This document shows positions 2,963-63,525 of a DNA stretch of 64,000 nt, one piece after another. Source of the stretch: Proteromonas lacertae (taxonomy: Eukaryota); contig NGBS01000882.1 of NCBI GenBank assembly GCA_002245135.1, positions 124,001 to 188,000 on the forward strand. Reading direction: 5' to 3'. The position numbers were made by a program, and so were the translations under genes. Positions within the stretch are counted from its first letter, which is position 1. Each line of letters opens with the position of its first letter. Under the pieces are notes generated by a model, which was not told where the DNA came from, ran no database searches, and was given only the letters and a program-made list of their open reading frames with translations.

Positions 2963-3035
2963 GCGGGATTGGCTCAGTTGGAAGAGCGTAAGTCTCATAA
3001 TCTTAAGGTCGTGAGTTCGAACCTCACATTCCGCA
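2963..3035 (+). tRNA. tRNA-Met (CAT), elongator type
   Basis: Acceptor stem GCGGGAT/ATTCCGC, D arm GCTC-AGTTGGAA-GAGC, anticodon loop CTCATAA, T arm GTGAG-TTCGAAC-CTCAC, T-rich terminator downstream. G1-C72 and the TTCG loop indicate elongator. Confidence 0.97.
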
Positions 3036-3451
3036 ATTCTTTTTTCTTTTTCTTTTCTTTCTTCTAATTTATCTATACTTATAAATCATAATGCCAAATA
3101 ATGATTTTATCATTTATTAATGAAATGATAAGAATTAACAGTTATTAAAGCAATCAAAATCAATTCATTTATAAAGTTAATGATATATTTGTTTTAAATT
3201 AATTAATATATATTTAACACTCATAAATTCCATTTATTAAAATAATAATTCTTTATATGGAACTAAATAATATGGAGATCTTTTTCAATTTTTGACATAG
3301 TATTAGAGAATTAATAAAAATATTAATTACGTTCATCAATTAGAATTATAATTTAATTCTTTATTATTATTATAATATAATCATAAATAAATAATTCCAA
3401 TTCCAATCACAAAAACAATACAATAATAAATCAAAAACAATTATTGTTTAA

Positions 3452-24571: not shown

Positions 24572-25372
24572 TTAAAATTTGCAAGTTATATTAGCATTGA
24601 TACTGTCAAAATACACATTATCTTTATCTGGATTATGCCAAATTGCTTTATAACTTGTTGGCAGTCTTATTCCATTGATATCTTTATAATCAGATATAAC
24701 AGCAGACCAAGGGATGTATTCAGTTGCTCCATTTGGTTGAGTCTCTCCTCTATCTTTAGTATAAAACGATTCCATTTCTCCAATATCATTGAATGTGAAT
24801 GTTCCTTCAGCTGATGTGCCATACATTGAAATTTTTGCTTTTGCATGAAGATTATCAACACTTTCCCACTTTATATACGGTTGTATTGCCATTGAAGGTA
24901 TTGCTAAACACTCAGCTAAGGCAGTTACTAAACATGATTTGTCCATACTTGGACCTGTTTGATTGAAGAGGGTGAATGTGTGACATAATACACCTTTCAT
25001 ACTCCCTTTACCGTTCACATAAGAATCAAGACCATCAAATGCAAAACAGAACATGTTTGCATTAATCACCGCTAATCTGGCAGGCTCTTTTACAAAATTG
25101 TGTTGCACATAATGAATTTTCATGGGTTCTTTATTTTTATCCATCTTAAACTTTGTATCCGTGTGATCAATAATGATTGAAGACATTTTTGGAGTTCCAA
25201 TGAGTTTACAGCATTTGAAATACCTTTTCACAGGATCAGGAAGTGATGCGATATCATTTTCACTAAAGTTACCCTCTTTTAACCTCAATTCCCTTGTTAG
25301 TATGTCAGTGATGTTCTTAAACTCCTTATTTACCGATTTATAGCAGCAACAGCATGAGCAGCAACAACCCAT
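24572..25372 (-). CDS. Intron-less bacterial-type protein (DUF6544/DUF6920-like) with N-terminal MGCCCSCCCC lipidation motif
   Basis: LPDPVKRYF, QHNFVKEPARLA, DSYVNGKGSMKG, YIKWESVDNLHAKA, GTFTFNDIGEMESF, PWSA...DYK.INGIRLPT..KAIWH; family label from recall. Confidence 0.7.
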   Translation of the reverse strand: MGCCCSCCCCYKSVNKEFKNITDILTRELRLKEGNFSENDIASLPDPVKRYFKCCKLIGTPKMSSIIIDHTDTKFKMDKNKEPMKIHYVQHNFVKEPARLAVINANMFCFAFDGLDSYVNGKGSMKGVLCHTFTLFNQTGPSMDKSCLVTALAECLAIPSMAIQPYIKWESVDNLHAKAKISMYGTSAEGTFTFNDIGEMESFYTKDRGETQPNGATEYIPWSAVISDYKDINGIRLPTSYKAIWHNPDKDNVYFDSINANITCKF

Positions 25373-30338: not shown

Positions 30339-33300
30339 TTACTTTGGTAATAAAGCTTCTTGATTTGCTTCATTCTTTTCTGTATTATTTCTCTTTCTCT
30401 TACATATCTTAATAGCAGCAAAAGCAATAATCAATACAACAGCAAGTGTAATAGTTAAAATCAATACTAATATTACAGGTGATTGAGTTGTTGCTGGTTC
30501 TACTGTTGGTTCATCAGATCCATCATCTTCAGTGGTTGTTGGTCCTTGTGTTGTTGGTGGAATAGGTTGTTCAGTAGTTGGTGGTACAGTTGTTGGAATT
30601 GATGTTGTTGGTGCGACTGTAGTTGGTGTTACAGTAGTCGGTTGTTGAGTAGTTGGTTGTTGGTTTTTCAGTTGTTGGTGTTACAGTAGTTGGTTGTTGC
30701 AGTAGTTGGTTTTTCAGTTGTTGGTTGTTGAGTTGTTGGTTTTGGTGGAATTGTTGGAATTGATGTTGTTGGTGAATATTTTTGTTTTTTAATGTATAAT
30801 TTGACATTATTTTCATCTTTAAGAGTATCCACATTTGTCTTTAAGTATCCATTGGAGTTAAAACCTTTACAATTCACATCTAAACTACACAATATCTTCA
30901 ATTGTTCCACATCTTTAGTAACAGTTCCTTTACTGAGTAAATCGTTCTTATCTGCATCTTTATTCTCTAAAACTTCATATTCATATTCATCACTATGATA
31001 ATTAACATATTTATTTATAATATTGTCTATTTCTGCAAGTGTATCACCACTTGGTTGATTTGGGAAGGATTTATCACTTTCCCAAAATGCTTTTTCTACA
31101 TTTTCCCATACATTATTACCCCATTCTCCTTCATCAAAATCTTTGCCTTGTTCTACAGCTTGTACTAAACCATCAAATAATGATTTCCATCTTAACAATA
31201 CATAATCAGATATTAATCCATTCCAATGTTTTGAAGCATAATCCATTATTTCACCTCTTGGTCCCCAACTACTCACTTGATTCTTTGCATTTATAACCAA
31301 TTGTCTTATTCTATCTTCATCTCCTTTACCCCATTTCTTAGCATCTTCTGTCCACACTCCTAATAGATAGTTCTCATTTGTTCCTAACATTTTATCTAAA
31401 TCATTCAACATTTGGATAATGAAATCTCTTTGAGGTTTTAAATTGTCATTATCTTTTCGATTATATGATGCAAATGGTAATTTTATTAAATCATATAAAT
31501 AATTACCTATTACTTGTCTAGCTACATCAATATAATCATATAAAAAGTGAGGTGATAATGGTTTTTCCATTGAATTAGCAACTTCATTCATTTCTCTTAA
31601 TACATAAACAGTATCAGTTACATTAGTCCAAGTATAATCAAATTCTCTATTCATACTAGGTCTTTCACTTATTATATTGAATGTATTATCATATACTGGA
31701 TAGGAGGAGTTATAACTACTGTGATATAAGTGTAACCAAGCATCTATTAGCTTTCTTTGCATTTTTATCTTTCTTGTTGATACCAGCTCTTCTTAAAGCA
31801 TAGTTACTGATCCATTCTGTTATATTTACTGGAGTATCTCTCCAAGGAAATTCACTTGAGAATTCATAACTATAAAATATAAATCATAAAAAGAAATATA
31901 AAGAAAAGAGAAAAAAGATTAAAATTAGAATGATATATATATATACATGATATAATTATTCTCAATAGCTTCCATAGTTAATCCAAATCCAATTGTACTA
32001 TATTTCTTATTATTAATAGTTTCATAATAAGTGTTTTGCATTCTATCAATATTACCATATAATGCTCTTCTTCCTCCAAAGTTGTGTAATATATTATAAA
32101 CCATATCTTTACCGAAATAACCATCTAATCTTGGATATTGAGGACGATCATCACTTGATAAATCTAATATTAACATATGATCATTTGGCACTGCATCTAA
32201 ATAAGCTTTTACTCTTTCGGTTGTCCAGAAATATTCTGAATTTAAGAACAACCACCCTTGCATTAACCAAATAGCTTCTGGATCTACATCTACCATTGAT
32301 TGATAGATAGCATGGCTGACATTACTTAGATAATCTAAATCAGAGACGGGAGGATTCATTTCATTAAATTCATCACAATTGAACAAGTGATCATTTCCAT
32401 ATTCTTTAATTTCTTCTTGTAAAAATACTCTACCAATATCATTGAATAATGTTTCATTTGGATTAATCATTAGTACGGAGGTATGCTTATCTTCAAACCC
32501 CATCCAAGCTGTACTTTTCAACGTACTTACTTGTGGATAATGTTGTTTTAATCCATCTGGTACAAATCCTGAAAATGCTGGTAATACATTTCTCATACCG
32601 TAGTTTCTCACTTTTTCTACTATTTTCACTTCTAAATCATGTTGATCATTAATCCATTCATCATCTAAAGGTCCGCCCCATAATTTTAAATTACCCATTC
32701 TTCCCCATGCTAAGAAGGCTGGCCCGGCATAGAATTGCATTGTATCTTCACGAGTCAAGTTGAATTGTTTGAATGTTTTTTCCCAAATGTATTCTTGACC
32801 TGTGAATGATAAGATGATGTTATATCCTAACATTGCTGCCCAATCAATTTCACGACTCCATCGCTCAAAGTCCCAAAATGCCATGGAATAACTGACTGTA
32901 CAGACATTTAAGTAATATCTGTATTTCATATGACTTTCGTGCCTTTCAGTTTGATCAATAATTGGTAGTGGGTTTGGTAAGACGATATGTTTCCAACTAT
33001 CACCAACTCCCCAACTTATTTCTGCATCACAATAGTACTTTAAGTACCAATACAATCCACTAGCTAATGATGCACCAGTATTACCTACTATTTTAATTAC
33101 AACTCTATCACTTCCAGATGAGCTTAAATCAAAGTAATCGTTACTATTGCTGTTTTCTTTTATTTCATATTCAAACAAATCTGATGCTTCTTTACCTACC
33201 AAAGAAATTGTTAGATTTTTTACCTAATTCAGAAAATAGAATAAACAAGAGATACTGTATCAATTTGAACAGCAATATCAGCAGCCAAGCTTGATCCAAA

Positions 33301-48028: not shown

Positions 48029-48300
48029 TAAAGAGATAAGATTATTAAATAGTTAAAATTACTAGAACAGTTTATGTAATTTATATGTTTAATGTTAATA
48101 TTGTTGAATAATTTCTATATAATGTTTTGAACAGGGCTGTATAAAAATTATCAAGCTAAATGTATTAACATCTATTTTATTCCTGATGTTATCAACTCTC
48201 CATCCAGACATCTAGACACAATTAAATAATTAGTTATAATTGTACAAATTGTTTACAATTTGATAAATATCTATCCCGATAAGGAAGTGTCTAGAGATGG

Positions 48301-48917
48301 TGTTGTACTCCGTTGAGCTAATTGTGCCGTTGAGTGTTAAGAAGACTTTTTTCAATTCTAATATCATAAACGTAACCTCTGGCCCTTCAATATTACTAAT
48401 CAACGCTTTGTTTTCCAAAATAGTTACGTTGGCCTAATATCGTATATTCGTGTTTAGGTTCCTGTTCTGGAAACACTTTTTATTTTTATATTATTTTAAA
48501 AGCTTATAATAATAGTAGACATCGAGATAAAGGTTTTAAATAGAAAAGGAATACCTACTAATTGCATTTACCTGTTTAAAATTTATTTTTAAAAAACCGG
48601 CTTGAATGAGGCTTGAATAGATTTTTTATTCTTTCGTTTTTAAGTGTCTTAACATCTAAATATGTGTGATTTAATTGCTTAAACTAATGTATTTTTAACT
48701 CTAGTAGTGATTGAAGCAAAAAAATAAAAACTAAAATTATAATTGTTTTCAATATGTTGGGATAAAGTTCAAAATAATATATATCGCAGATGCAGCTTAT
48801 ATGACAAAGTAAGATTATATTTGCATATAACTCGCCATCAAACCACACACTATCATTTTAGAATTGAAAAAAGTCTTCTTAACGCTCAACGGCGCATTTA
48901 GCTCAACGGCGCATAAC
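48301..48917. mobile_element. Non-autonomous TIR element A (~620 bp, ~60-bp TIRs); right tip interrupted by element B
   Basis: Left tgttgtactccgttgagc...aagaagacttttttcaattcta is the imperfect reverse complement of tagaattgaaaaaagtcttcttaacgctcaacggc...cataac at 48859-48917; no TSD found. Confidence 0.75.
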
Positions 48918-49539
48918 TGTTGTTCCCCGTATGGCGGAAATCCCCGTATGGCGGAACTCTATATTGCAGAATGATTCAATCAAAACTAATATGATATTCA
49001 TGATGTTCGGAGTTAGTTATTAACAAATATATAGTTAGTTTGTCATATGACCTACATCTGTGATATACTTATTTATGAACTTCATTATTATCAATATTAA
49101 ACTAATTTTTGTATATTTTCTATTATAATGTATCAGTCACTACTACAGTCTAAAATACATTATCTGATATAAATAGAATTCACTATTTTTAATGTTAAGG
49201 AGGTTAAAAAAGAAAAAAGAAAAAATAAGTTCAAGCCTCGCTCAAGCCTGCTCTTTAATTTCCTTTTTTACTACCTTAACATTAAAATTATTGTATTCTA
49301 TTCATATCAGATAATGTATTTTAGACTGTAGTAGTGACTGATACATTAAAATAGAAAATATACAAAAATTAGTTTAATATTGATAATAATGAAGTTCATA
49401 AATAAGTATATCACAGATGTAGGTCATATGACAAACTAACTATATATTTGTTAATAACTAACTCCGAACATGATGAATATCATAATAGTTTTGATTGAAT
49501 CATTCTGCAAAATAGATTTCCGCCATACGGGGAACAACA
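48918..49539. mobile_element. Foldback MITE B (622 bp, ~275-bp TIRs, TGT...ACA ends, 6-bp TSD CATAAC)
   Basis: Starts tgttgttccccgtatggcggaa and ends ttccgccatacggggaacaaca; arms nearly identical; CATAAC at 48912-48917 and 49540-49545. Confidence 0.93.
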
Positions 49540-49704
49540 CATAACAACATATAATAAACAAACACCATTTCAATATATGATATTAATTTCATTAATTATT
49601 ATATTATAATTATCAATCTTCTTCATCCACATCTACTACGTCAAGCTTGTTATGTTTTAAAAGCATAATTAGCTGCTTTTTTTCGTATTCTTTTTTTTCT
49701 CTTT

Positions 49705-50117
49705 TGTTGTTCCCAGTATGGCGGAACTCTATATTGCAGAATTATTTAATCAAAACTAATATGATATTCATGATGTTCGGAGTTAGTTATTAACAAACAT
49801 ATAGTTAGTTTGTCATATGACCTACATCTATTATATACTTATTTATGAACTTCAATATCATCAATATTAAACTAATTTTCTTATATTTTCTATTTTAATG
49901 TATCAGTCACTACTACAGTCTAAAATACATTATCTAATATGAATAGAATACATTATTTTTAGTACCAGCTTTTTTATTTCTTTTTTACAGAAACTGTTAC
50001 TAAATTTATTGTAATATATTCATATTAGATAATAATGTATTTTAGACTGTAGTAGTGACTGATATATTAAAATAGAAAATATAAGAAAATTAGTTTAATA
50101 TAGATAATAATGAAGTT
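49705..50117. mobile_element. Second copy of the MITE B family, right arm truncated
   Basis: Starts tgttgttcccagtatggcggaactctatattgc (direct copy of the B left arm); inverted arm ~50010-50117 stops abruptly where a new tgttgt begins at 50118. Confidence 0.85.
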
Positions 50118-50460
50118 TGTTGTGCGTTTGTCTACCAGACACTTTCAAAACAAACTATATACATATTCTTACTTGTCTTGATGAAAAATTGTTACTTTTA
50201 TACTTACTTTGTCATATAACATACATCTATGAGTAACTATTAATTGTCATAATATTGAATAAAAACTATCAAAATATATTCTAGAAATTATGTATATTCC
50301 AAATTTTATGTTTTTATTGACATATAATGTCTAAATGAGAAGTGTCAGTTACACAGGAATTAAGAATTGTACCCCTTCTGACGTCATTTTTAATTTAAAA
50401 TTTCATTTTCTTCAACTTTTTTGTTTGTATGTTTTTTTGATTCAGTCAAAGAGAAAAAAT

Positions 50461-52739: not shown

Positions 52740-52841
52740 TAGGGTGAAATAGAACACTGTTCCATTTCACCCTATGTGTTTTTGATCCAAAAAAATAGCC
52801 GTTTCAATGTGTTCTATTTCACCCTATGGTTTTTTCACCCT
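52740..52841. repeat. Junction palindrome with iterated TTTCACCCT motif
   Basis: tagggtgaaat-a-gaaca-c-tgttc-c-atttcacccta (52740-52774), another gtgttctatttcacccta at ~52809-52826 and tttcaccct at ~52833-52841. Confidence 0.85.
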
Positions 52842-53202
52842 TAGAAACATAATTAGACAATAATAAATACATCAATCGATTTCTTTATTTATGCTGGGCT
52901 CATATATGCCCTTAGTTTGACTTTCTGATCATAATCGAAATCTAATTTTCTTAAAAAATTCAAAAACAATAATAGATAGGATGGCCACCATACTGTGTGA
53001 TATGACAACATGTGGTGACCATCCTATGTAATAAAAAACAAAACAAAAAAATGGAGTTCAAGTCAAATCTCGAAACGCATCTATTTTTCAATTATTGAAA
53101 TTTCTTATAAGACTTGCTATAATGCTAATTAATTATGTAAATTATGAAAACAACACTCCCACAGAAACACAATCTATCATTTGAACTAATTAGGACCAGA
53201 GA

Positions 53203-54004
53203 TTAATAATCATTTTGGTACTCTGGCTCCTCCTCCTCATCATCTACTATATATTGGGAGAAGTTATCATCATCATCATCTTCCTCTGTAGTACTATCTT
53301 CTTGTTTTTGGTTTTTGGTTGAAATGTTTTTTTGATTTATTTTCTTTCTTTTGAATCTTGGAGTTTTAGATGTACTGCACTTTCTTTTTGTGGATACCAC
53401 CTTTAACAACTTGTTGTTGTCATCATCATCATCATTATAATCATCATCATCCAGATTATCAAACAACGATGCTATAGAGACTTTACTACTTACCATACTT
53501 TCAGCAGTACTTCTGTAAACTATATCTCCTTTCGAATTCTTATTTTCTTCTTTTTCGCATTTTGCTAAATCGTTGTCACCGAAATGTATGATATACATAC
53601 AAGTCAGTTCCACCATGTCCTCCATTGCATGGTCAAGCATACGATCATACTATTGATTCAAAATTGAAATATATATTAAATGGATATACGATGCTTTTGT
53701 CCAGATCCTCTTTATACATGATATTACATAGCAGGACAGACATCAACACTCTAGACATCTTTAACCTTTCATGTCGATCATCAATCTTTTCAATTTCTGT
53801 GAATCTTTTGTACCATGTAGTGAAACGCCTTATACTGAAGTTACCATTCCAGCTATAGACATATAATAATATATTATACCTATAACGTTGCAAATCTTTC
53901 TCATGTTCTACAATCGTCTTAAAATTCTCACATAAAATTTTATATATGCTCGGATTTGGATCATTAATGAAGCTGTTTTTGTATAGTATCTTCCAGTTGC
54001 TCAT
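53203..54004 (-). CDS. Viral hypothetical protein with acidic tail; probably one gene split by an indel near 53645
   Basis: Adjacent same-strand ORFs 53645-54004 and 53203-53640, no introns. Confidence 0.55.
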
Positions 54005-54166
54005 AATAAGTGAATGAAAGGAAAATAACGTTGAACAATGAACAAATGTTATATGTATATATATATTTTTAAATGTTGTTATAAAGACATATAACTCTAT
54101 TAATTTAGATAATAATCATAATGAAATGAATTTCATTATTACTTTTGTTTTTTGTTTTTGGACCAT

Positions 54167-55453
54167 ATGTTTAGCACTAATAGTTACGATCCACATTTAT
54201 ACAGCTCATATAGCAACCAAAACCCATATCCTGTCAAACCGTTACCTACAAATGGTAACTTATCACTTGCAACATATATTAACCATGGAGCACCGAATAT
54301 TACACATCCAACAAGAGAGGCTTCGTATGAAGACCAAATGTCAAACCAAATTGCCCAATATCGATCACGCTTAGATGAGCTATATAAAAAATATTATTAC
54401 CTCAATGAAAATGAATTTGTCAAAATGACACAACATTTGTCTAGTATGAATGACATAGCTCCACCACCAGATGTAGTACGTGAATACTTAAGGAGACAAC
54501 CTGGAAAACAAATTGTTGATTTCAAATATAAAAAAAATAATCCATTTGCAACTATCAAAAAGCCAGGGTACTTCCAAATGGATATAGTGTTTTTCTTACC
54601 TGATATGGAACATTTGTATTTTATCGAAATGAATTCAAGAAAAGTATGGGCAATATTTATGCCTAATAAATATGGTGATATTACATTGGATGCATTTCAG
54701 AAGTGGTATTATGAAACAGATGCTTATGGAAACAAAACACATAAAAATGTGGTAAGTATCCTATCAGATGCTGATGCTAGTTTTTCAAATATCAAGAAGT
54801 TATGTGATGCTGAAGGAATATCATATTTTCAAAAAGATAGTTCAGAGCATAAAATAGAGTCATTATTGGATAGATCAGTGAGTGTGTTAAAAAGATTGTT
54901 GTACAAACACTTGGTGGATCTGGGATATGATGCACCTACATATATGGCAGATATTGATCACAATGATAAGCATATTATACCAGATATGAATTATAAATTA
55001 AAACTCGATAGTATAATACAGGAAGTGATAGATGACTATAACAACAAGCCATTACCAGGAATTAAAGGATATACCCCAAATGAGGTATTCCATAGTCCAG
55101 AATTACAAAAACAAATATTACAAAAATCAATTAACTACAACTTAAAGAATTATGAAAAATTGGATCATACTGGTCAAAATTTCGAAGTAGGTGATTTGGT
55201 GAGATTCAAAGAGAGAAGACGTAAAATGGATAAGAACATATACTGGTCAGACAATGTATATAAGATAATCAAGAAAAATCGATATTCATACAATTTAGGT
55301 GATATCAATGGGAATGACATTCAAGGTTTTTCATTAATTCGATTCAAACACTATGAGTTGCAGTTAGTGAGAAAAGATGATGCACCAACCACATGGTTTA
55401 GAAAAATACTGGAGAGACCCAAGAGAAAGAAGGGAGACAAATCAATATTGTAA
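54167..55453 (+). CDS. Polinton/Maverick-type retroviral-like (rve) integrase
   Basis: GYFQMDIVF (D), ILSDADASF (D), LLDRSVSVLKRLL (third acid), YNNKP...GYTPNEV, and the C-terminal FEVGDLVR...WSDNVYKI...YNL.DING..I...FKHYELQLV module. Confidence 0.9.
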   Translation: MFSTNSYDPHLYSSYSNQNPYPVKPLPTNGNLSLATYINHGAPNITHPTREASYEDQMSNQIAQYRSRLDELYKKYYYLNENEFVKMTQHLSSMNDIAPPPDVVREYLRRQPGKQIVDFKYKKNNPFATIKKPGYFQMDIVFFLPDMEHLYFIEMNSRKVWAIFMPNKYGDITLDAFQKWYYETDAYGNKTHKNVVSILSDADASFSNIKKLCDAEGISYFQKDSSEHKIESLLDRSVSVLKRLLYKHLVDLGYDAPTYMADIDHNDKHIIPDMNYKLKLDSIIQEVIDDYNNKPLPGIKGYTPNEVFHSPELQKQILQKSINYNLKNYEKLDHTGQNFEVGDLVRFKERRRKMDKNIYWSDNVYKIIKKNRYSYNLGDINGNDIQGFSLIRFKHYELQLVRKDDAPTTWFRKILERPKRKKGDKSIL

Positions 55454-55504
55454 CGAATAAATTTTTATTATGCTATATATTGTATATGTTGTTTTATTAT
55501 TATT

Positions 55505-55694
55505 GGGCATTGGATAGACTAGCTACGATGAGGGCTGCGTTTCTAATTTATAATTATTTATTTATTTATTAAATTAATTTCACAAGGAATTTATGGAAGT
55601 TTAATAATTTCTACTTGGATGTGTTGTTTAATATTGCGCCATTGAAATTCGGCTTGAATCATCCTGGCACGGTATATCTAAATGCCCTTTTTTT
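55505..55694 (+). ncRNA. Putative Pol III small RNA 1 (~185 nt, VA-RNA-like), viral
   Basis: GGGCATT/AATGCCC terminal stem extended by GCTA/TGGC, GATGA/TCATC and GGCTG/CGGCT pairings; ends in T7; no internal TTTT. Confidence 0.6.
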
Positions 55695-55701
55695 ATTTAA
55701 T

Positions 55702-55795
55702 TGGGATCTGATAGACTGTGCAAGGAAAAAAGAGTCATGCAGCTGGCATTAGTGGTTCGATTCCTAGCACAGACTATTAGTAATCCCATTTTTTT
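55702..55795 (+). ncRNA. Putative Pol III small RNA 2 (~90 nt, VA/vault-like hairpin), viral
   Basis: Stems TGGGAT/ATCCCA, CTGATAG/CTATTAG, CTGTGC/GCACAG, AGGAA/TTCCT; consensus B box GGTTCGATTCC at 55754-55764; ends in T7. Confidence 0.75.
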
Positions 55796-55854
55796 AATTT
55801 CTTTTTTTAAATATTTTATTATACATATACATATAGTATATTCTATTTTTATAT

Positions 55855-56265
55855 ATGCTTACACTACCACCACAGATTGAATATAAATTACCAGAACTTG
55901 AATCCAAGGTAACAAAGAAATATCATTTAAGTGGTCCAGACATATACTTGGATTTGTATAGCCTACAATTCCTTATATTTTTTTATCATCGAAAACCTAT
56001 ATATCAATGGTATTTTGAGTTAACACACAAAATGATTAACATGATCATGAGTCAACGTTTGATATTAGTGTTTGTAGGTCCTTGTGACTTAGGAAATAGA
56101 GATTATCCGAAAGTTACATATACACCAACAATGAAAAAAGTAATCATTAGAATGCCACAAAGATGTTTTAATGGTAAGATGCCAATATTCTTCAAATGTA
56201 CTCATATGGATACAGAGATGATAAATATATTGAAACTCATACAATATTTCACCACACATAAATAA
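55855..56265 (+). CDS. Viral hypothetical protein (136 aa)
   Basis: Intact ATG-TAA ORF flanked by AT-rich spacers. Confidence 0.6.
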   Translation: MLTLPPQIEYKLPELESKVTKKYHLSGPDIYLDLYSLQFLIFFYHRKPIYQWYFELTHKMINMIMSQRLILVFVGPCDLGNRDYPKVTYTPTMKKVIIRMPQRCFNGKMPIFFKCTHMDTEMINILKLIQYFTTHK

Positions 56266-56296
56266 AAAAAATAATTAAGTAATAATTATATATATA

Positions 56297-56800
56297 TTAT
56301 ATTAATCCAAATTGTTTTTTCATTAACCTAATTTTTGCTTCACCCACTATTGTATTATAGTCAGTAGCCTTTTTGAAACTACACTGATCTCTTAAAATAT
56401 TTTTCAAAAAATTAATAGCAAAAAAACCACAGTTGGCAGTATTTGAATTTTGGATTCTGTACTCCATTGATTTTAAGTTCATACTTTTCATTATGATACT
56501 TCTTTAATTTTTTCAAATTTTTTTTAAATTCTTCCAAGTGTTGAGGATCTTCACCAAATGAATCATAGTACAGGAATTGCTTTCTTGATATTGTCAACTA
56601 CTAAAGCAACCCAATGACCTATAGAATCAGGGCTAGCTTGTGTGGTGAGTGTATTGATTATGATTCCCCATTGATTCTTCTTTTTGGGTATAGGAAGTAC
56701 AAGCTCGTCCCAGCAGAACACTCCCATGAACTTTCCATGGAAATTATTGAACTCATTTTTCACAATTAACTCTATATCAAAATTCGATAAGGCATCTGAA
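56297..56800 (-). CDS. Adenain-like (clan CE) cysteine maturation protease domain; two indels
   Basis: LSNFDIE...FMGVFCWDEL...IIINT...GHWVAL (His), YYDSFG (Asp), IQNSNTANCGFFAINFL (Gln, Cys) across three frames. Confidence 0.88.
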
Positions 56801-59383
56801 GTGATACTGTTATACAAAACTTTCCTACGTGAAATTAATTTCTTTACTTTTTTATTATTTCCATTACCTATTCCAAAGTAACTCATAGCTTCACTGAGTT
56901 GTTTTGCTTGATCTAAATTACTCACTGCTCTACCAAAATTAGTGAGTGAACTTGGAATTGTTTGCTGTGAACGTTTCACGTAGTTATCCATTTTGATTGC
57001 ATTCTTGTGTTGATATGGTGTTGGTTTTAACCAGTTTAATAAACCACCTGCATCTAGCAAACCAAAACAAGCAGTCAATGCACTGAATACTGTTCCTATA
57101 CCTGCAACAGTTTGTAATGTACCTGTTGGATCAGCTGCAACAGCAGTTTTTGCCATTGATGGCATAGCTTTTGATAATTCACTGATACCTTTAACTGCTG
57201 CTGCAGCAGTTGTTGCATCACCTCCATTTGCAGCTGCAGCTACAGTTGCTGCTGTTTTTAATGTATCACCTACATTTTTTGCATCTATATTTCCAATATT
57301 AGAAAATTTGTAGAAGAATGGAACTAATTGAAATAAGTATCGAACATATGGATGAGTATTGAACATAAATGAAACACCAAAGTTATACAACAAGTCTACA
57401 GGTAACCATGATTTTTGAATTGCTTCAGGTAACATTGACTTAACTTTTTCTGAATTACCATAATACAAATCAGTGATAGCAGGTAATCTACCACCTGACA
57501 GCATACGAATTATTTCATAGTAGTCGAAAATGAAGTACCACATTACATACAAGAACCCTGATGTTGGTAGTTTAGATTTTTTCCATAACCAATAAGCCTA
57601 AACATGTCATTACTATTGCACGAACATATTTCATTGCATGATCTACTTCAAACATTTGAGGAGTAACTCCACCTACCAAATATGACTTCATTGTATAGTA
57701 TATTTGTGGAAATATCCTAAATACATTCTCTACACACAGGAACAAATTACCAGCAAAACCCATAAAATCAGATTCACGTAATGAATCAAGTGCTTTTTGA
57801 AATTGTGAATTTTCAAATTGTGCCCATGAACTACAAGCAGTTTTCACTAAACCAATAGCTATTTCATATTTTTGTTTATTATCTGCATTCACCCACTCTT
57901 GAGGAAGTGAGTGACCTAACTTCTCTCTGTTATAATCAAAGTTAATGAAATCTCTACTATTCTGTGATGCTATTTCATTCAGTTCTCTATATTTATCTTC
58001 ATTAATTAATGTACACTGTCCTTCACCCATATCTATAGCACTATTCATCAGTTCTTGATTTTTTGGATCTAATGCCCATCTATAAAATTTTGATCTTTCT
58101 AATATCTCTGGATCATCCATATATCTTTGTGCCTTTTGATTATTCAATGCAATATATTCTTTTACTTTTTCAGCTCGATTCGGATCAAAATTATATGGAT
58201 CTGAATATTGATTGATCTTACTTACTCCATCAACTAATTCATTTTGCAAATACTCCTGCTGTAGTAATAGTTTGTTATAATATTCTATTGCATCTTTATC
58301 ATTACCTGTTAATTTATCCCAAGTTGAGGTCAACCAATCTTGTCTATAATTTTTATAGGCTGCTAATTGAGGATTCTTTTCTATAATCTCTTGTAATGAT
58401 TTATAATTTTGTAATTTAGGAAATTTTTGTAACAAAGGATCTGTAACTCTATTCATTCCATTATCATATGCCTGAACATCTGCTTCTGTAACATATTCAG
58501 GCCAATTCAAAAGATAGCTTCTTGGATTAGATGTATCTAATGTTGCTAATGGGAATGTTCCTCTTAAATGTCCTTTTTTATGTTCACGATCTAGCATATC
58601 ATAAAAATTAATATGATAATTGTTAGGCAACAAAGAAGCATAATTATTAGTTAAAGCATATTGAACTTCTTTTCGAGCTTGTCTATTCAAACCTGGACTA
58701 AATAATTTATCATAATTCCAATTATAATCATATCCTACAGTTTCTTTTGGTATATATGGTTGAATATATTCTGGTATTTGACTTGGCTGTAATTGTGATG
58801 TTCCATTATAAGCAGCACTAGCAGCATCATACATTTGTTGTCTTGGATTAGTAATAATGACATGCTCATTAGGACCAACACTTTGACCCACTCTTAATGG
58901 TATAATACCACTATTACCACCTAATTTCTTAGTAGCCAAGAGATGCCTCCGTGGGATACTCTCTAATTTTAGTTTATTTCTTCTGTGATGTTTCTTATGT
59001 TTGAAATGAACATGTTTTCTTCTACCTGAACCTGTCTTTGGATATCCATCTAAAGACATACCAAATAAACCATAATTTACTTTTGGCCATAAATGATATT
59101 CACTACCCATACCATTAATTAAATTACACACATCTGATCGTGCTTCTGGAACACTACGACCACATTGATATTTGAAATAATGTAAGTAATCTGCCAATTG
59201 ATCTATTGTTCCACCATAGCTGGAATACTTTGATATAATATCTAATGGCAATCCTACATTTTTACATACATTTTCTAAATCTTGTTTTGTATTATTCATA
59301 ACCATTTGCTTAACTGATTCATAATCATATTGATTAATCAAAAATGGTTGTAATTTTTCCATAATAGCATCTACATTATATCT

Positions 59384-59425
<42 letters not shown>

Positions 59426-60802
59426 GTTGTTGTATTGGTTGTGTGTTATTTTGCAATGTTGGCTGGGCTGCTGCCGCCGTGGCGGCAGCAGCACCTGCCA
59501 TCATTCCGGCGTAACTTGCAGCATTTGAACTTTGATTATTATAACCTGCCCCAGTTGCAGGTATTGAAGTTGTATTATTAGAACTGGCCCAGTTGTAGTA
59601 CTATTAGTTGTATTATTATAACTGGGAGCAGTTGTAACATTCGATGCTTGAATATTTGAAGTAGCCGGCGCACTCGTCGAATTTGTTGTTGTAGGAGTAG
59701 CACCAAATATACCTCTGAACCAATTGTATATATTACTTAGTGATGTAGTAAAGAAACCCATTATACTATCTAACTTAGAATGAATCCATTGTGACATATC
59801 CATTGGAGGAACTTGTTTCCAACGATTATATACCAAACTGACAAAATTAGGAGTTAACATTGACACAAAAGATGCTGCATTAACCCATGCTGGGGATAAA
59901 CCAAATATCCATTGCATAACACCACTATATCCTATTCCTGCATTTACTAAATACTTTAATATTGCACCAACTGTACTATCAGGAAATAGTATATCAAACA
60001 CTTGTGAAATAGAACCTAATGTCATAGTACATAAGCAGAACTTCACACCAAATTTCAACCAATCGTATGTTGTATTACCTGAGAAATATTTATCAATTTT
60101 TGAAATTAATGACTCTTTTTCTCTTTCTTCCATTGTTGCTATCTTTCTCTGATATTCTTCATTCCTTGCTTTCACTATTTCATTTTCTTGTTGTAATTCA
60201 TACTCGTGATCTTTTTGTGTTGTACCAGCATTATTATTCCATCTTGGATTGGATTGATATGAATTTACATTGTACTGTGATCCCCATTGTTGTAATGGCT
60301 GTCCTTCAATTTGAGATAAAAATGGATTTTGCCATTGATATGTTAAATTCTCTGGTTGAGCATAATAATCTGAGTATGGCTTGTTATACTTACCTATGTT
60401 CCTATAATATCGTCCAAACTGATCTGTGATGCCTGACATATATAATTTGTATTTCATCTCATCAGTCATGAAATTGTTTTTTGTTGCGTTTATATTTGGA
60501 TTAACAGGCTTTGATAATTCCTCTATATCATCCTCATCTCCTATAGTATCATAAAATTTATTGAAACTAGATTTAGGATCATAGATGTCTAATCCATATG
60601 TACCATTGCCTTTGTCAACAATGGCTGTTGGGTTAGCCATGTGACTGAGATCTAGTTTTATTTTTTTGTTATCTTTCACCTTGTTGTAGATGATCTTTTT
60701 CAATTTTCTCTTAAGTGCATTATGATACACAGAGGGATTCTCAAAATCAATTGCTTCTTCTTTTGGTGATGATTGTTGCTTATGCTTTCGTTTAACACCC
60801 AT
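56297..60802 (-). CDS. Probable ~1,500-aa viral polyprotein ending in the protease
   Basis: ORFs of 433, 640 and 329 aa and the protease pieces join with single-base corrections (~59588, ~59424, ~57575, ~56580, ~56459); no AT-rich intergenic spacers between them. Confidence 0.55.
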
Positions 60803-60880
60803 AAAATATATAAAAACAATATAAAAAATAGAGAAACAATACTATTAGAAATATAGCCGTTATTGATATTATAGATGATA

Positions 60881-61892
60881 TTAACTTTTCTTTCGTTCTA
60901 CAGATTGCCATCCATCATCATCAAAATCAGAATCAAATTCACCATTTTCTTCTTGTTCTTGTTCTTGTTCTTCTTCAAAATCAGATTTAAATTCATCATC
61001 ATCTTCTTCTTCTTTTGGTTTATTAAATTCAATATCTTCATTTTCATCATCATCATCATCTGGCTTTCCATTTGCAATCCATTCTTCATATTGTTTAATA
61101 TTTTGAGCTTCTTCCCACAACTCTTTTATTTTAGTTTTCTGAGCTTCTGTAAAGTCATATTCATCAAATATTTGGTCTATTTGCTTCTTTAGTAAAATTT
61201 TTAACATCGTCAATAGTAATTTCATCATCATTATCATTATCATCATCACCTTTATCATCTTTAACATCAGTTGACGGCTGTACTTTAATATCTGTTTCTG
61301 CTTTAGGAGTAATCAATTTATTCAACTTCTACTATTATATATAAATTAACATGAATTTTATACCATATTGTTGCATTTGTGACATCTTGATTTGGTTAAT
61401 TGGATTACTCATATACTCACCCATCTGCATCCTAGTCTTTGCACTTGCTTGAGCCATTTCATTGTAATTAGGTCTATTCATATTCACATACATGTTAGGA
61501 CCAAACAAATGCTGATCATCAATCTCTCTTAAACTATTAGCAAGTGGTATAGCCATTGCATTACCTTCATGTAATGATGTAGATAACATAGAATCGATTG
61601 CATTCTGTCTCTCTAAAAATTTTTGCTCATCATTCAATTTACGAATATCACCTTCATTAGGAGGAGTGTCTTTAGAATTTATCTTAGTAATCTCATCTTT
61701 TATTTCATTTAAACGACTGTTTCTCATATCCACTAAATCTTTCGCATTTTCTCTATAAAAATTATTATATAAACTCTGATAATATTTGTCATGTCCTTTA
61801 TATCCTTCACCTCTCCGTATCTTCTTCCTTTTGCCTTTGCCTCTCATCCGAGCAAACACAGCAAGCAGTATTTTCTTATTTAGTTTTTTCAT
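60881..61892 (-). CDS. Viral protein with basic N-terminus and very acidic C-terminus; probably one gene split by indels
   Basis: RMRGKGKRKKIRRGEG at the start of ORF 61335-61892; D/E-rich ORF 60881-61267 follows closely on the same strand. Confidence 0.5.
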
Positions 61893-61961
61893 AATAACTT
61901 AATAGAAAATAAATAAACAATTTAATTATAATAATAATGTGTAATATAAGTATTATTAATA

Positions 61962-62579
61962 TTATTGAACATAAACAGGCTCGATAGGCTCGCCTTGTAT
62001 TTCTCTACCTGCAATATCATTACCTAATGGTTTATCTTCTTCTTCTGGTTCTGGTTCTTTTACTTTCTCTATTTTCTCTTTCTTTGGATTTGAACTCTTT
62101 TCTAATTTCTTCATATATTTGCCTAATTGATCTCTGGTTTCTTTCAAAGCTATTTGTAATTCAGCTTTTGTCATACGACTAGGAGGAGGTAATGATGAGT
62201 CCCTATCCTTTTTACTATTTTTTCTACCACCACCACGTTTGGACTTAGGCTCGTCTAAAGCATTTGATTTTTGTTTCTTACTAGATCTTCTTTTGGATCT
62301 CTCATGTGATCTTGATCTTGATCTGGATTTATGGGAGTGTTTTTTACCTTTTATTGATTTTTTATGAGATGATGATCCATCATTCTGTAATATATTGTAT
62401 ATATCCTTTGGAGAGAATTGTGATAGTAATTCATTGATCATAGCATCACTTGGTTCAGCTTCTGTGATTTTTGGTTTGGACATCTTGGAATCATTTTCAT
62501 TTATTGACTCTACTTCACTATCAGACTCATCAGTAGAACTATCATCACTCACATATTCAGTTGATTCAGTATCACTCAT
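61962..62579 (-). CDS. Viral hypothetical protein, acidic N-terminus with RS/K-rich centre
   Basis: Intact 205-aa ORF, SRSRSRSHERSKRRSSKK. Confidence 0.65.
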   Translation of the reverse strand: MSDTESTEYVSDDSSTDESDSEVESINENDSKMSKPKITEAEPSDAMINELLSQFSPKDIYNILQNDGSSSHKKSIKGKKHSHKSRSRSRSHERSKRRSSKKQKSNALDEPKSKRGGGRKNSKKDRDSSLPPPSRMTKAELQIALKETRDQLGKYMKKLEKSSNPKKEKIEKVKEPEPEEEDKPLGNDIAGREIQGEPIEPVYVQ

Positions 62580-62669
62580 TATTTATTTCTATGTTATGAA
62601 AAATAAAATTAACAAAAGAAACAATGAAAATAATAATATAAGTATTATTAGCATTATTAAAAGTCAAGC

Positions 62670-62962
62670 TTACATTCGAGCCACCTTTGATTTTAAATAT
62701 GCATTCAATAATGCTTGTTGATTACTACCACCTCCATTGAATGGTAATCTACCTCTTCCTGACCTACGTCTTCTACGACCAAATCCCATTGTTGATAATC
62801 CATCTGCGATATCATTCTTTCCAAATTCCCTAGCTATTTTGGATGTTATTTTATGATCCTTTCCCAGTTAAATGCTTTGGAACCCCAATTTTTTAACTTA
62901 CCCCAGAAAGAACCACCCCTTCTTCCATAAACGCATCTACGTCTTCTACCACCTTTTGGCAT
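62670..62962 (-). CDS. Small Arg-rich core-like viral protein; indels, missed by ORF track
   Basis: MPKGGRRRR...GGSFWGKLK...DHKITSKIAREFGKNDIADGLSTMGFGRRRRRSGRGRLPF...KVARM-stop. Confidence 0.65.
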
Positions 62963-63021
62963 TATGTTATTTCGAATGAAAATAAAGAAATACGATTAAA
63001 ATAGAAAAAAATAAAATTAGA

Positions 63022-63525
63022 CTAGAAAACTCTAATCTTATTGTCAATATATCGATTATCGAGACTATTACTACTTTTACGTCTTTTACCAGAACCAGTC
63101 TTTTTCTTTGCTAACAAAAATTTCGGTATAGTACTTGGACCACCTTTCGTCCAATTCTTTACAGCAAATGGATTAGCCATTCCACCATTTTTTAAATAGG
63201 GCATGCTGCCTGGACCACCAGTAATTACATTTTTTAATTCCTTTGGTACTCTATTGACACCTAATTTTTTAATTTTATTCCAAAAAGAACCACCACTTAT
63301 ACCACCATCATAATTCCATTCTGCTTGCCCACCTCTTCTTCTACGTTTTCTACCATATCCTACATTGGATACAACATTACCTAAGGCTGGACCTACACCT
63401 GGGATTAAACTAGCTGCTGTTGATAAAATTTTTGTTTTCTTAAAGAAATTCTTTACTCCATCCCAGAACTTGCCTTTACCTATGATATACTTACGATATT
63501 TCGCTTTTGAACTTCTTTTAACCAT
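63022..63525 (-). CDS. Basic core / membrane-lytic-like viral protein with Gly-x-Gly motifs
   Basis: GKGKFWDGVKNFFKKTKILSTAASLIPGVG...VGYGRKRRRRGG...GGSFWNKIKKLG...GSGKRRK. Confidence 0.7.
   Translation of the reverse strand: MVKRSSKAKYRKYIIGKGKFWDGVKNFFKKTKILSTAASLIPGVGPALGNVVSNVGYGRKRRRRGGQAEWNYDGGISGGSFWNKIKKLGVNRVPKELKNVITGGPGSMPYLKNGGMANPFAVKNWTKGGPSTIPKFLLAKKKTGSGKRRKSSNSLDNRYIDNKIRVF

Follow-up and report, generated by a model that had tools for sequence, protein, structure and literature searches.

The window – the whole 64-kb stretch of DNA analysed here – is AT-rich (21–34% GC per kb) and eukaryotic: a Pfam scan recognised kinase, Hsp70, NAGLU, PP4R3 and HYDIN/CFAP65-like frames, and there are short, AT-rich stretches resembling introns. 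The host is probably a unicellular eukaryote. The sole tRNA found in it by ARAGORN and Rfam is a host tRNA-Met (2963–3035). From approximately 52740 to the end of the window extends a gene-dense element that opens with palindromic repeats. These probably constitute the left terminus of a Polinton-like element whose right end would lie beyond the window; no second terminal repeat was recognised within the window, off which the element runs. The palindromes start exactly at the end of the HYDIN/CFAP65-like host frame, so a flagellar gene may have been interrupted by the insertion. They are built on a repeated 10-base motif. Other features of the host stretch include a gene at 30668–32929 with an alpha-N-acetylglucosaminidase domain, a DUF6544/DUF6920 gene at 24572–25372 that may have been transferred from bacteria, and, at 48300–50120, a cluster of long inverted repeats whose arms measure 275–280 nt and are 90–95% complementary; these are probably foldback elements or non-autonomous DNA transposons.

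Two genes and one terminus form the basis for regarding the element as Polinton-like, an assignment that appears well supported. One gene encodes a 428-aa rve-type integrase. PF00665 (rve) is carried by 48% and 28% of the members of its nearest Atlas clusters, the first of which is mostly Preplasmiviricota; the window's own protein gave no Pfam match. A structure model of low confidence (mean pLDDT 52.8) matches retroviral integrases (E 5.6e-8) and also the integrases of MELD viruses and mavirus (E 1e-5 to 3e-5). Relatives number six at 42–56%, and 431 at E≤0.001. The second gene is an adenovirus-type cysteine protease: its relative P0027, which carries PF00770 and PF02902, maps onto three frames in this copy, the last of which retains a weak PF00770 match (E 0.072). 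The integrase fold and the protease relative thus agree on the Polinton-like context claimed in the original prediction. The splitting of the protease gene points to small indels, either in this copy or in the assembly, and the copy may be decaying. Several neighbouring frames also look interrupted. Capsid proteins, packaging ATPase and polymerase were not recognised by Pfam among the 14 frames of at least 100 aa in the part of the element that the window covers. Two short Arg/Lys- and Gly-rich frames on the minus strand (62670–63525) contain "FW..VK" amphipathic motifs and resemble adenovirus core and protein VI-like proteins, a likeness for which neither Pfam nor Atlas (the latter queried with the basic protein at 63022–63525) provided support.

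Table 1. Positions in the window of the element's features and of the two candidate RNA units
Feature	Position	Strand	Basis or remark
Probable left terminus of Polinton-like element	52740..52845	.	Palindromic repeats, fold, host Ig-like domains upstream
rve-type (retroviral-like) integrase, 428 aa, open frame	54167..55453	+	Atlas clusters, structure model
Likely 3'-end signals of integrase mRNA (AATAAA 55456, TTGTTT 55489)	55456..55494	+	Upstream of U1
TATA-like site at -31/-29 of U1	55474..55479	+	Weak alone, 18% of equally AT-rich positions
Unit 1 (U1), candidate Pol III RNA of ~185–190 nt	55505..55694	+	Fold, T7
U1 arms	55505–55543 and 55644–55687	+	Enclose 100-nt AT-rich insert
Best A-box-like site of U1, +16, 1 mismatch	55520..55530	+	Consensus scan
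Degenerate B-box-like site of U1, 2 mismatches	55652..55660	+	About homologous to position of U2's B box
TATA-like site at -30 of U2, inside U1's 3' arm	55673..55679	+	Same offset as host tRNA-Met
Unit 2 (U2), candidate ~90-nt Pol III RNA predicted to fold as a single long imperfect hairpin	55703..55795	+	Fold, T7
A-box-like site of U2, +7, 1 mismatch in 12-base form	55709..55720	+	Consensus scan
Consensus B box of U2, GGTTCGATTCC	55754..55764	+	Only exact GGTTCRANTCC 11-mer in 64 kb
Second T7 run, possible back-up terminator	55802..55808	+	Sequence
Next element frame, 136 aa, no family	55855..56265	+	Pfam scan
Adenovirus-type cysteine protease gene, split over three frames	56297..57543	-	Relative P0027

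Behind the integrase gene lies a spacer of 401 bp, the longest internal spacer of the element (others measure 4–162 bp). In this spacer the original prediction had placed two back-to-back units with paired ends, terminal T7 runs and a shared motif, GATAGACT, all of which are present. In U1, GGGCATT (55505–55511) pairs with AATGCCC (55681–55687) and is followed by T7 at 55688–55694; in U2, TGGGAT (55702–55707) pairs with ATCCCA (55783–55788) and T7 occupies 55789–55795. The motif GATAGACT starts at 55513 (+9 of U1) and at 55710 (+8 of U2, counted from G55703). Two details of the description need amendment. The stems are far longer than the 6–7 bp that had been named, with approximately 33 pairs predicted in U1 and 29 in U2, in helices of at most 7–8 bp. 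And although both units do end in T7, that exact length is not dependable, because the neighbouring protease gene is split over three frames by small indels. The interior of U1 is 100 nt of 20% GC and that of U2 a short loop; the predicted RNAs as a whole are 33–44% GC. Inspection by eye gave no support for a tRNA cloverleaf or an RNase P-like core, nor for a spliceosomal intron in the AT-rich insert of U1.

The predicted folds of U1 and U2 exceed chance. Minimum free energies of -49.5 kcal/mol for U1 (z -4.05) and -35.5 kcal/mol for U2 (z -5.85, folded from 55702) were each matched by none of 200 shuffles. Most pairs of the U1 stem have a pair probability above 0.9, those of the AT-rich multiloop being mostly lower, and the two units fold independently within a read-through molecule. 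When the sequences ending in each of the 144 runs of at least six T (both strands) were compared, the 90 nt that end with U2 ranked first by energy and second by z, while the 183 nt of U1 ranked fourth by energy, surpassed by one coding stretch rich in GC and by two sequences overlapping U2.

A second question is whether the units are related. Shuffled sequences equalled their global alignment in 2 of 2000 and 4 of 2000 trials. The 3' arms (55662–55687 in U1, 55762–55787 in U2) align ungapped with 16 of 26 positions identical; with the terminal CCC set aside the figure is 13 of 23, which 197 of 100000 shuffles reached. Moreover, these arms pair in the same register. Across the 26 stem positions, 12 form the same pair, 2 show one-sided and 3 two-sided changes and 9 are paired in one unit only, a comparison of two sequences and so too few to establish covariation; RNAalifold, run on an automatic alignment of U1 and U2, gave 11 shared pairs, 2 with a two-sided change. 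Taken together, the alignments and predicted pairing show U1 and U2 to be paralogs, a duplicated pair. The shared register indicates that the terminal stem is the part that survived duplication: it comprises 26 bp with mismatches every 3–8 bp, and the interiors are wholly different. Since only this stem has been kept, it is likely to be the working surface. A candidate third unit on the minus strand (approximately 53187–53045) was rejected, having a z of about 0, an internal T4 and no match to a model (R1) built from both units. This segment (53045–53187) ends in T7, has 11 of 12 bases in common with the 5' motif of U2 (reached by 8 of 100 shuffles) and contains a B-like site with 2 mismatches; we would suggest, weakly, that it is a decayed third unit or plain 3' UTR.

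These observations bear on the simplest alternative, namely that the arrangement arose by chance in an AT-rich spacer. The window does offer 144 T-runs of the requisite kind, and A-box-like sites are common in it, but the failure of every shuffle to match either fold, the adjacency of the units and their shared pairing register bring this possibility close to exclusion.

A critical issue is whether the paired sequences act as RNA or as DNA. Both units have inverted termini, ATT stands on either side of U2, and isolated B boxes can act as boundaries; the units might thus be miniature inverted-repeat insertions, or a TFIIIC-binding boundary protecting the element from heterochromatin, with no functional RNA. 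A decaying DNA palindrome, however, would be expected to show G.T and A.C mismatches equally. An alignment blind to wobble pairing instead gave approximately 4–5 G.T in U1 and 3 in U2 against 0–0.2 A.C, or about 8 to 0 when pooled, an excess that argues for plus-strand RNA over a DNA palindrome. The plus strand also folds better than the minus strand, by 16 kcal/mol for U1 (-48.3 against -32.1) and 6 kcal/mol for U2. No such plus-strand preference is shown by two true DNA palindromes of the window, the element end and the inverted repeat at 48941–49533, both of which fold slightly better on the minus strand. In addition, the flanks of U1 do not repeat. We regard action as DNA as very improbable, and U1 and U2 as probably functional plus-strand RNAs, that is, RNA genes.

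If they are RNA genes, which polymerase would transcribe them? Candidate type 2 Pol III signals were sought with the consensus of PMC2566860, that is, a B box of the form GWTCRANNC and an A box of the form TRGYNNANNNG 8–20 nt from the start. The consensus B box claimed for U2 proved exact and, as an 11-mer, unique in the window; its 9-base core (0 mismatches) occurs 21 times in the window. It lies near the 3' end, 24 nt ahead of the T-run. Less can be made of the A boxes. The motif GATAGACT, previously read as one, is a poor match, its register having 1 mismatch in U2 and 2 in U1 (+7/+8), and it is conserved at least partly because it belongs to the stem. Sites with at most one mismatch to the A box occur in 2021 of 5564 background stretches (36%). 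Each unit has a TATA-like site at about -30, and the host tRNA-Met has its TATA at -30 of the mature start; the chance of filling the slot is 4.5–18% each, depending on AT content, in a test designed after the sequence had been seen. Both units end in a T7 terminator and lack an internal T4. U1 contains ten TTT and no T4. T4 is likewise missing from 30 of 5000 dinucleotide shuffles, but also from 417 (9%) of the 4432 real stretches whose T content was matched, so the test is weak. From these sequence signals we judge transcription of U1 and U2 by Pol III to be moderately probable.

The position of the units, between two plus-strand genes and with their best fold on that strand, suggests another reading: they could be cis elements of Pol II transcripts, serving as the 3' UTR or terminator of the integrase or as the leader of the next gene, with a B box present by chance. 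Giant viruses and virophages end their mRNAs at hairpins, and 21 occurrences of the B core make a fortuitous match conceivable. Against this stand the AATAAA and TTGTTT upstream of U1, which suggest that the 3' end of the integrase mRNA precedes the units. Of 11 element frames (53203–62867), 6 have TTGTTT 36–50 nt past the stop, as against 6–9% of background windows, although the motif was chosen post hoc. Furthermore, when the nine other internal spacers of 20 bp or more were folded, a z below -2.5 was obtained for just one, at what is probably a misread coding junction, and two G-starting, T7-ending units with TATA at -30 would be left unexplained. Cis elements of Pol II transcripts are in our estimation quite unlikely. 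Within 100 nt of the stop, TTGTTT was seen in 2 of 10 host frames checked.

The original prediction likened the units to adenovirus VA RNAs and proposed comparison with the Rfam models of VA, vault, Y and tRNA; no match to any was obtained. The VA model (RF00102, adenovirus VA RNA I/II) gave no match at E≤10 in searches of 2.5 kb and 321 bp, and none at its gathering score on the element. Vault RNA, Y RNA, EBER and SRP RNA likewise gave none at E≤10 with Rfam, a search that could miss divergent protist forms, and neither ARAGORN nor Rfam recognised U1 or U2 as a tRNA. PKR, the main target of VA RNA, is a vertebrate protein, and the present host probably lacks it.

In outline the units share several features with VA RNA: they too form a tandem pair in a virus of broadly related kin and have a G start, an oligo-U end and an imperfect duplex, with an A-like box in the terminal stem and a B box in a stem (PMC7589676). 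The differences lie in the details. GGGU/ACCC, the most conserved VA element (PMC6599070), is missing as a tetrastem, neither GGGU nor ACCC occurring in U1 or U2. The division into terminal, central and apical domains is not found: U2 is a single hairpin with no central domain, and U1, in a fold computed without pseudoknots, combines a long stem with an AT-rich multiloop. VA RNA genes have both boxes and a run of at least four T; here T7 ends both units, an exact B box occurs in U2 only and the A boxes carry 1–2 mismatches. The RNAs predicted here have the low GC content given above, and the B box sits near their 3' end. Judged on sequence and predicted fold, U1 and U2 are not VA RNAs. Of the original interpretation, the Polinton-like setting is supported, and the units look like structured RNAs of the plus strand, duplicated and equipped with signals of Pol III type; kinship with VA RNA is not supported.

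Could the units instead derive from the host? A Pol III RNA gene or SINE of the host might have been captured and duplicated as a passenger; it could be vault-like, derived from a tRNA or some other protist RNA. Vault RNAs have paired ends around a variable interior, a layout that, together with a B box near the 3' end, is seen in the units. Their type 2 Pol III promoter, built from boxes A and B, is a further similarity (PMC7904556), and Polinton-like viruses capture host tRNA and rRNA genes (PMC12220804). Indeed, tRNA genes, flagged also in MELD viruses (PMC8502044), are Pol III genes in the same class of element (PMC12220804, PMC8502044). But U1 and U2 are not tRNAs; vault RNAs are cellular genes of animals, whereas these belong to an element; neither Rfam nor ARAGORN gave a match; and no poly(A) tail was seen. 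Nor was there a third copy in the 64 kb, where the next-best hit of model R1 had an E of 0.68 and BLAST of the units returned AT-rich matches only. Capture of a host gene is, like the Pol II reading, decidedly unlikely.

Copies were also sought beyond the window. Protein-guided scans found no relative locus in prokaryote genomes, and no relative among the matches listed for viral (at least 600) and metagenome (at least 593) contigs. Loci retrieved by back-translated motifs (6 viral, 2 metagenome) were all due to chance. A search for GATAGACT, a gap and a B box returned 84 viral loci in 44 distinct contexts, 13 of the 44 holding an ARAGORN tRNA; none contained a relative of the six element proteins queried. 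R1 had 0 matches across 92 viral and metagenome loci, and phage records gave no match to the units or the protease. Many phage contigs in the pattern search (L001–L003, L007, L008, approximately 3001–3055) share a conserved, unrelated element with a T-arm-like hairpin end that is not an ARAGORN tRNA; others resemble the 3' ends of tmRNA.

Further parallels are offered by the Pol III pre-miRNA genes of BLV, which are compact, clustered hairpins with an A-like box in the 5' arm, a T-run at the hairpin end and a B box that can sit past the terminator, as it possibly does here for U1 (PMC4267658, PMC5622367). This architecture raises the possibility that U1 and U2 are BLV-type genes for pre-miRNAs or shRNAs, whose terminal stems would be diced into guides of ~22 nt against host or helper-virus mRNAs; the effector would then be this product rather than the full-length RNA. 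The conserved part of the units is, as this would have it, the 26-bp terminal stem beside the U tail; U2 is a single 86-nt hairpin, of pre-miRNA size with its terminator at the hairpin end; and its sub-threshold matches in Rfam on the plus strand are to miRNA precursor models only (E 0.019 and 5.2). Their scores of 22.9 and 18.6 bits are, however, far under the 70-bit cut-offs, and antisense targets of the four arms were no better than 16/23 anywhere in the 64-kb window. U1 does not have the size of a pre-miRNA, being approximately three times as long as a hairpin of BLV; it lies far from the downstream B box, and its 100-nt interior is unlike a pre-miRNA loop. Other differences are that the B box of U2 is internal and that the element is DNA virus-like where BLV is a retrovirus. 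We consider pre-miRNA genes an unlikely explanation.

The best explanation overall, with a chance that we put at about even, is that the element encodes Pol III hairpin RNAs that would mimic dsRNA against silencing. Host Pol III would read each unit from its first G to its T-run and leave an RNA with a short U tail. The B box of U2 would be bound by TFIIIC, and the TATA sites at -30 by TBP. That would make U2 a conventional type 2 Pol III gene, while U1, with a degenerate B box of its own, would be transcribed weakly or else rely on the B box of U2, 60 nt past the terminator of U1. If the B box is shared, the distance from A to B would exceed 200 nt for U1, much above the ~30–60 bp of BLV (PMC4267658). 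The products would be imperfect duplexes of ~185 and ~90 nt with a 5'-triphosphate, and a dsRNA-binding protein, whether of Dicer type or another, could bind or cleave their terminal stem. VA RNAs are both decoys and substrates of Dicer, which cuts them in the terminal stem (PMC7589676). By analogy, the RNAs of U1 and U2 might compete for the dsRNA-processing proteins of the host or yield small RNAs; the role of anti-silencing decoy itself we offer tentatively, as a possibility on the doubtful side.

Polinton-like viruses are common in protist genomes, where they are presumably silenced by their hosts. That they carry RNA genes is known already: a survey of 8300 of their genomes reports matches to tRNA, rRNA, miRNA, snRNA, snoRNA and introns (PMC12220804). 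The terms VA, vault, Y and EBER do not appear in the available text passages of that paper or in its supplements, and its survey relied on Rfam cut-offs and ARAGORN, both of which miss U1 and U2. The original prediction knew of no such RNAs in Polintons, and the titles and abstract openings of the literature searched contain none. What is new relative to the tRNA and Rfam-type genes (PMC12220804) is a paralogous hairpin pair behind the integrase – a compact candidate whose start, B box and terminator are defined, of a kind that surveys based on Rfam and ARAGORN pass over. It is conceivable, though we hold it improbable as a general statement, that protist Polinton-like viruses encode Pol III hairpin RNAs against silencing, here as a duplicated pair with one B box, and that VA-like RNAs arose repeatedly among Polintons and adenoviruses, predate PKR and were first directed at Dicer-type pathways. 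If true, this would bear on the origin of adenovirus VA RNA, the protist case being one in which the strategy works in the absence of PKR.
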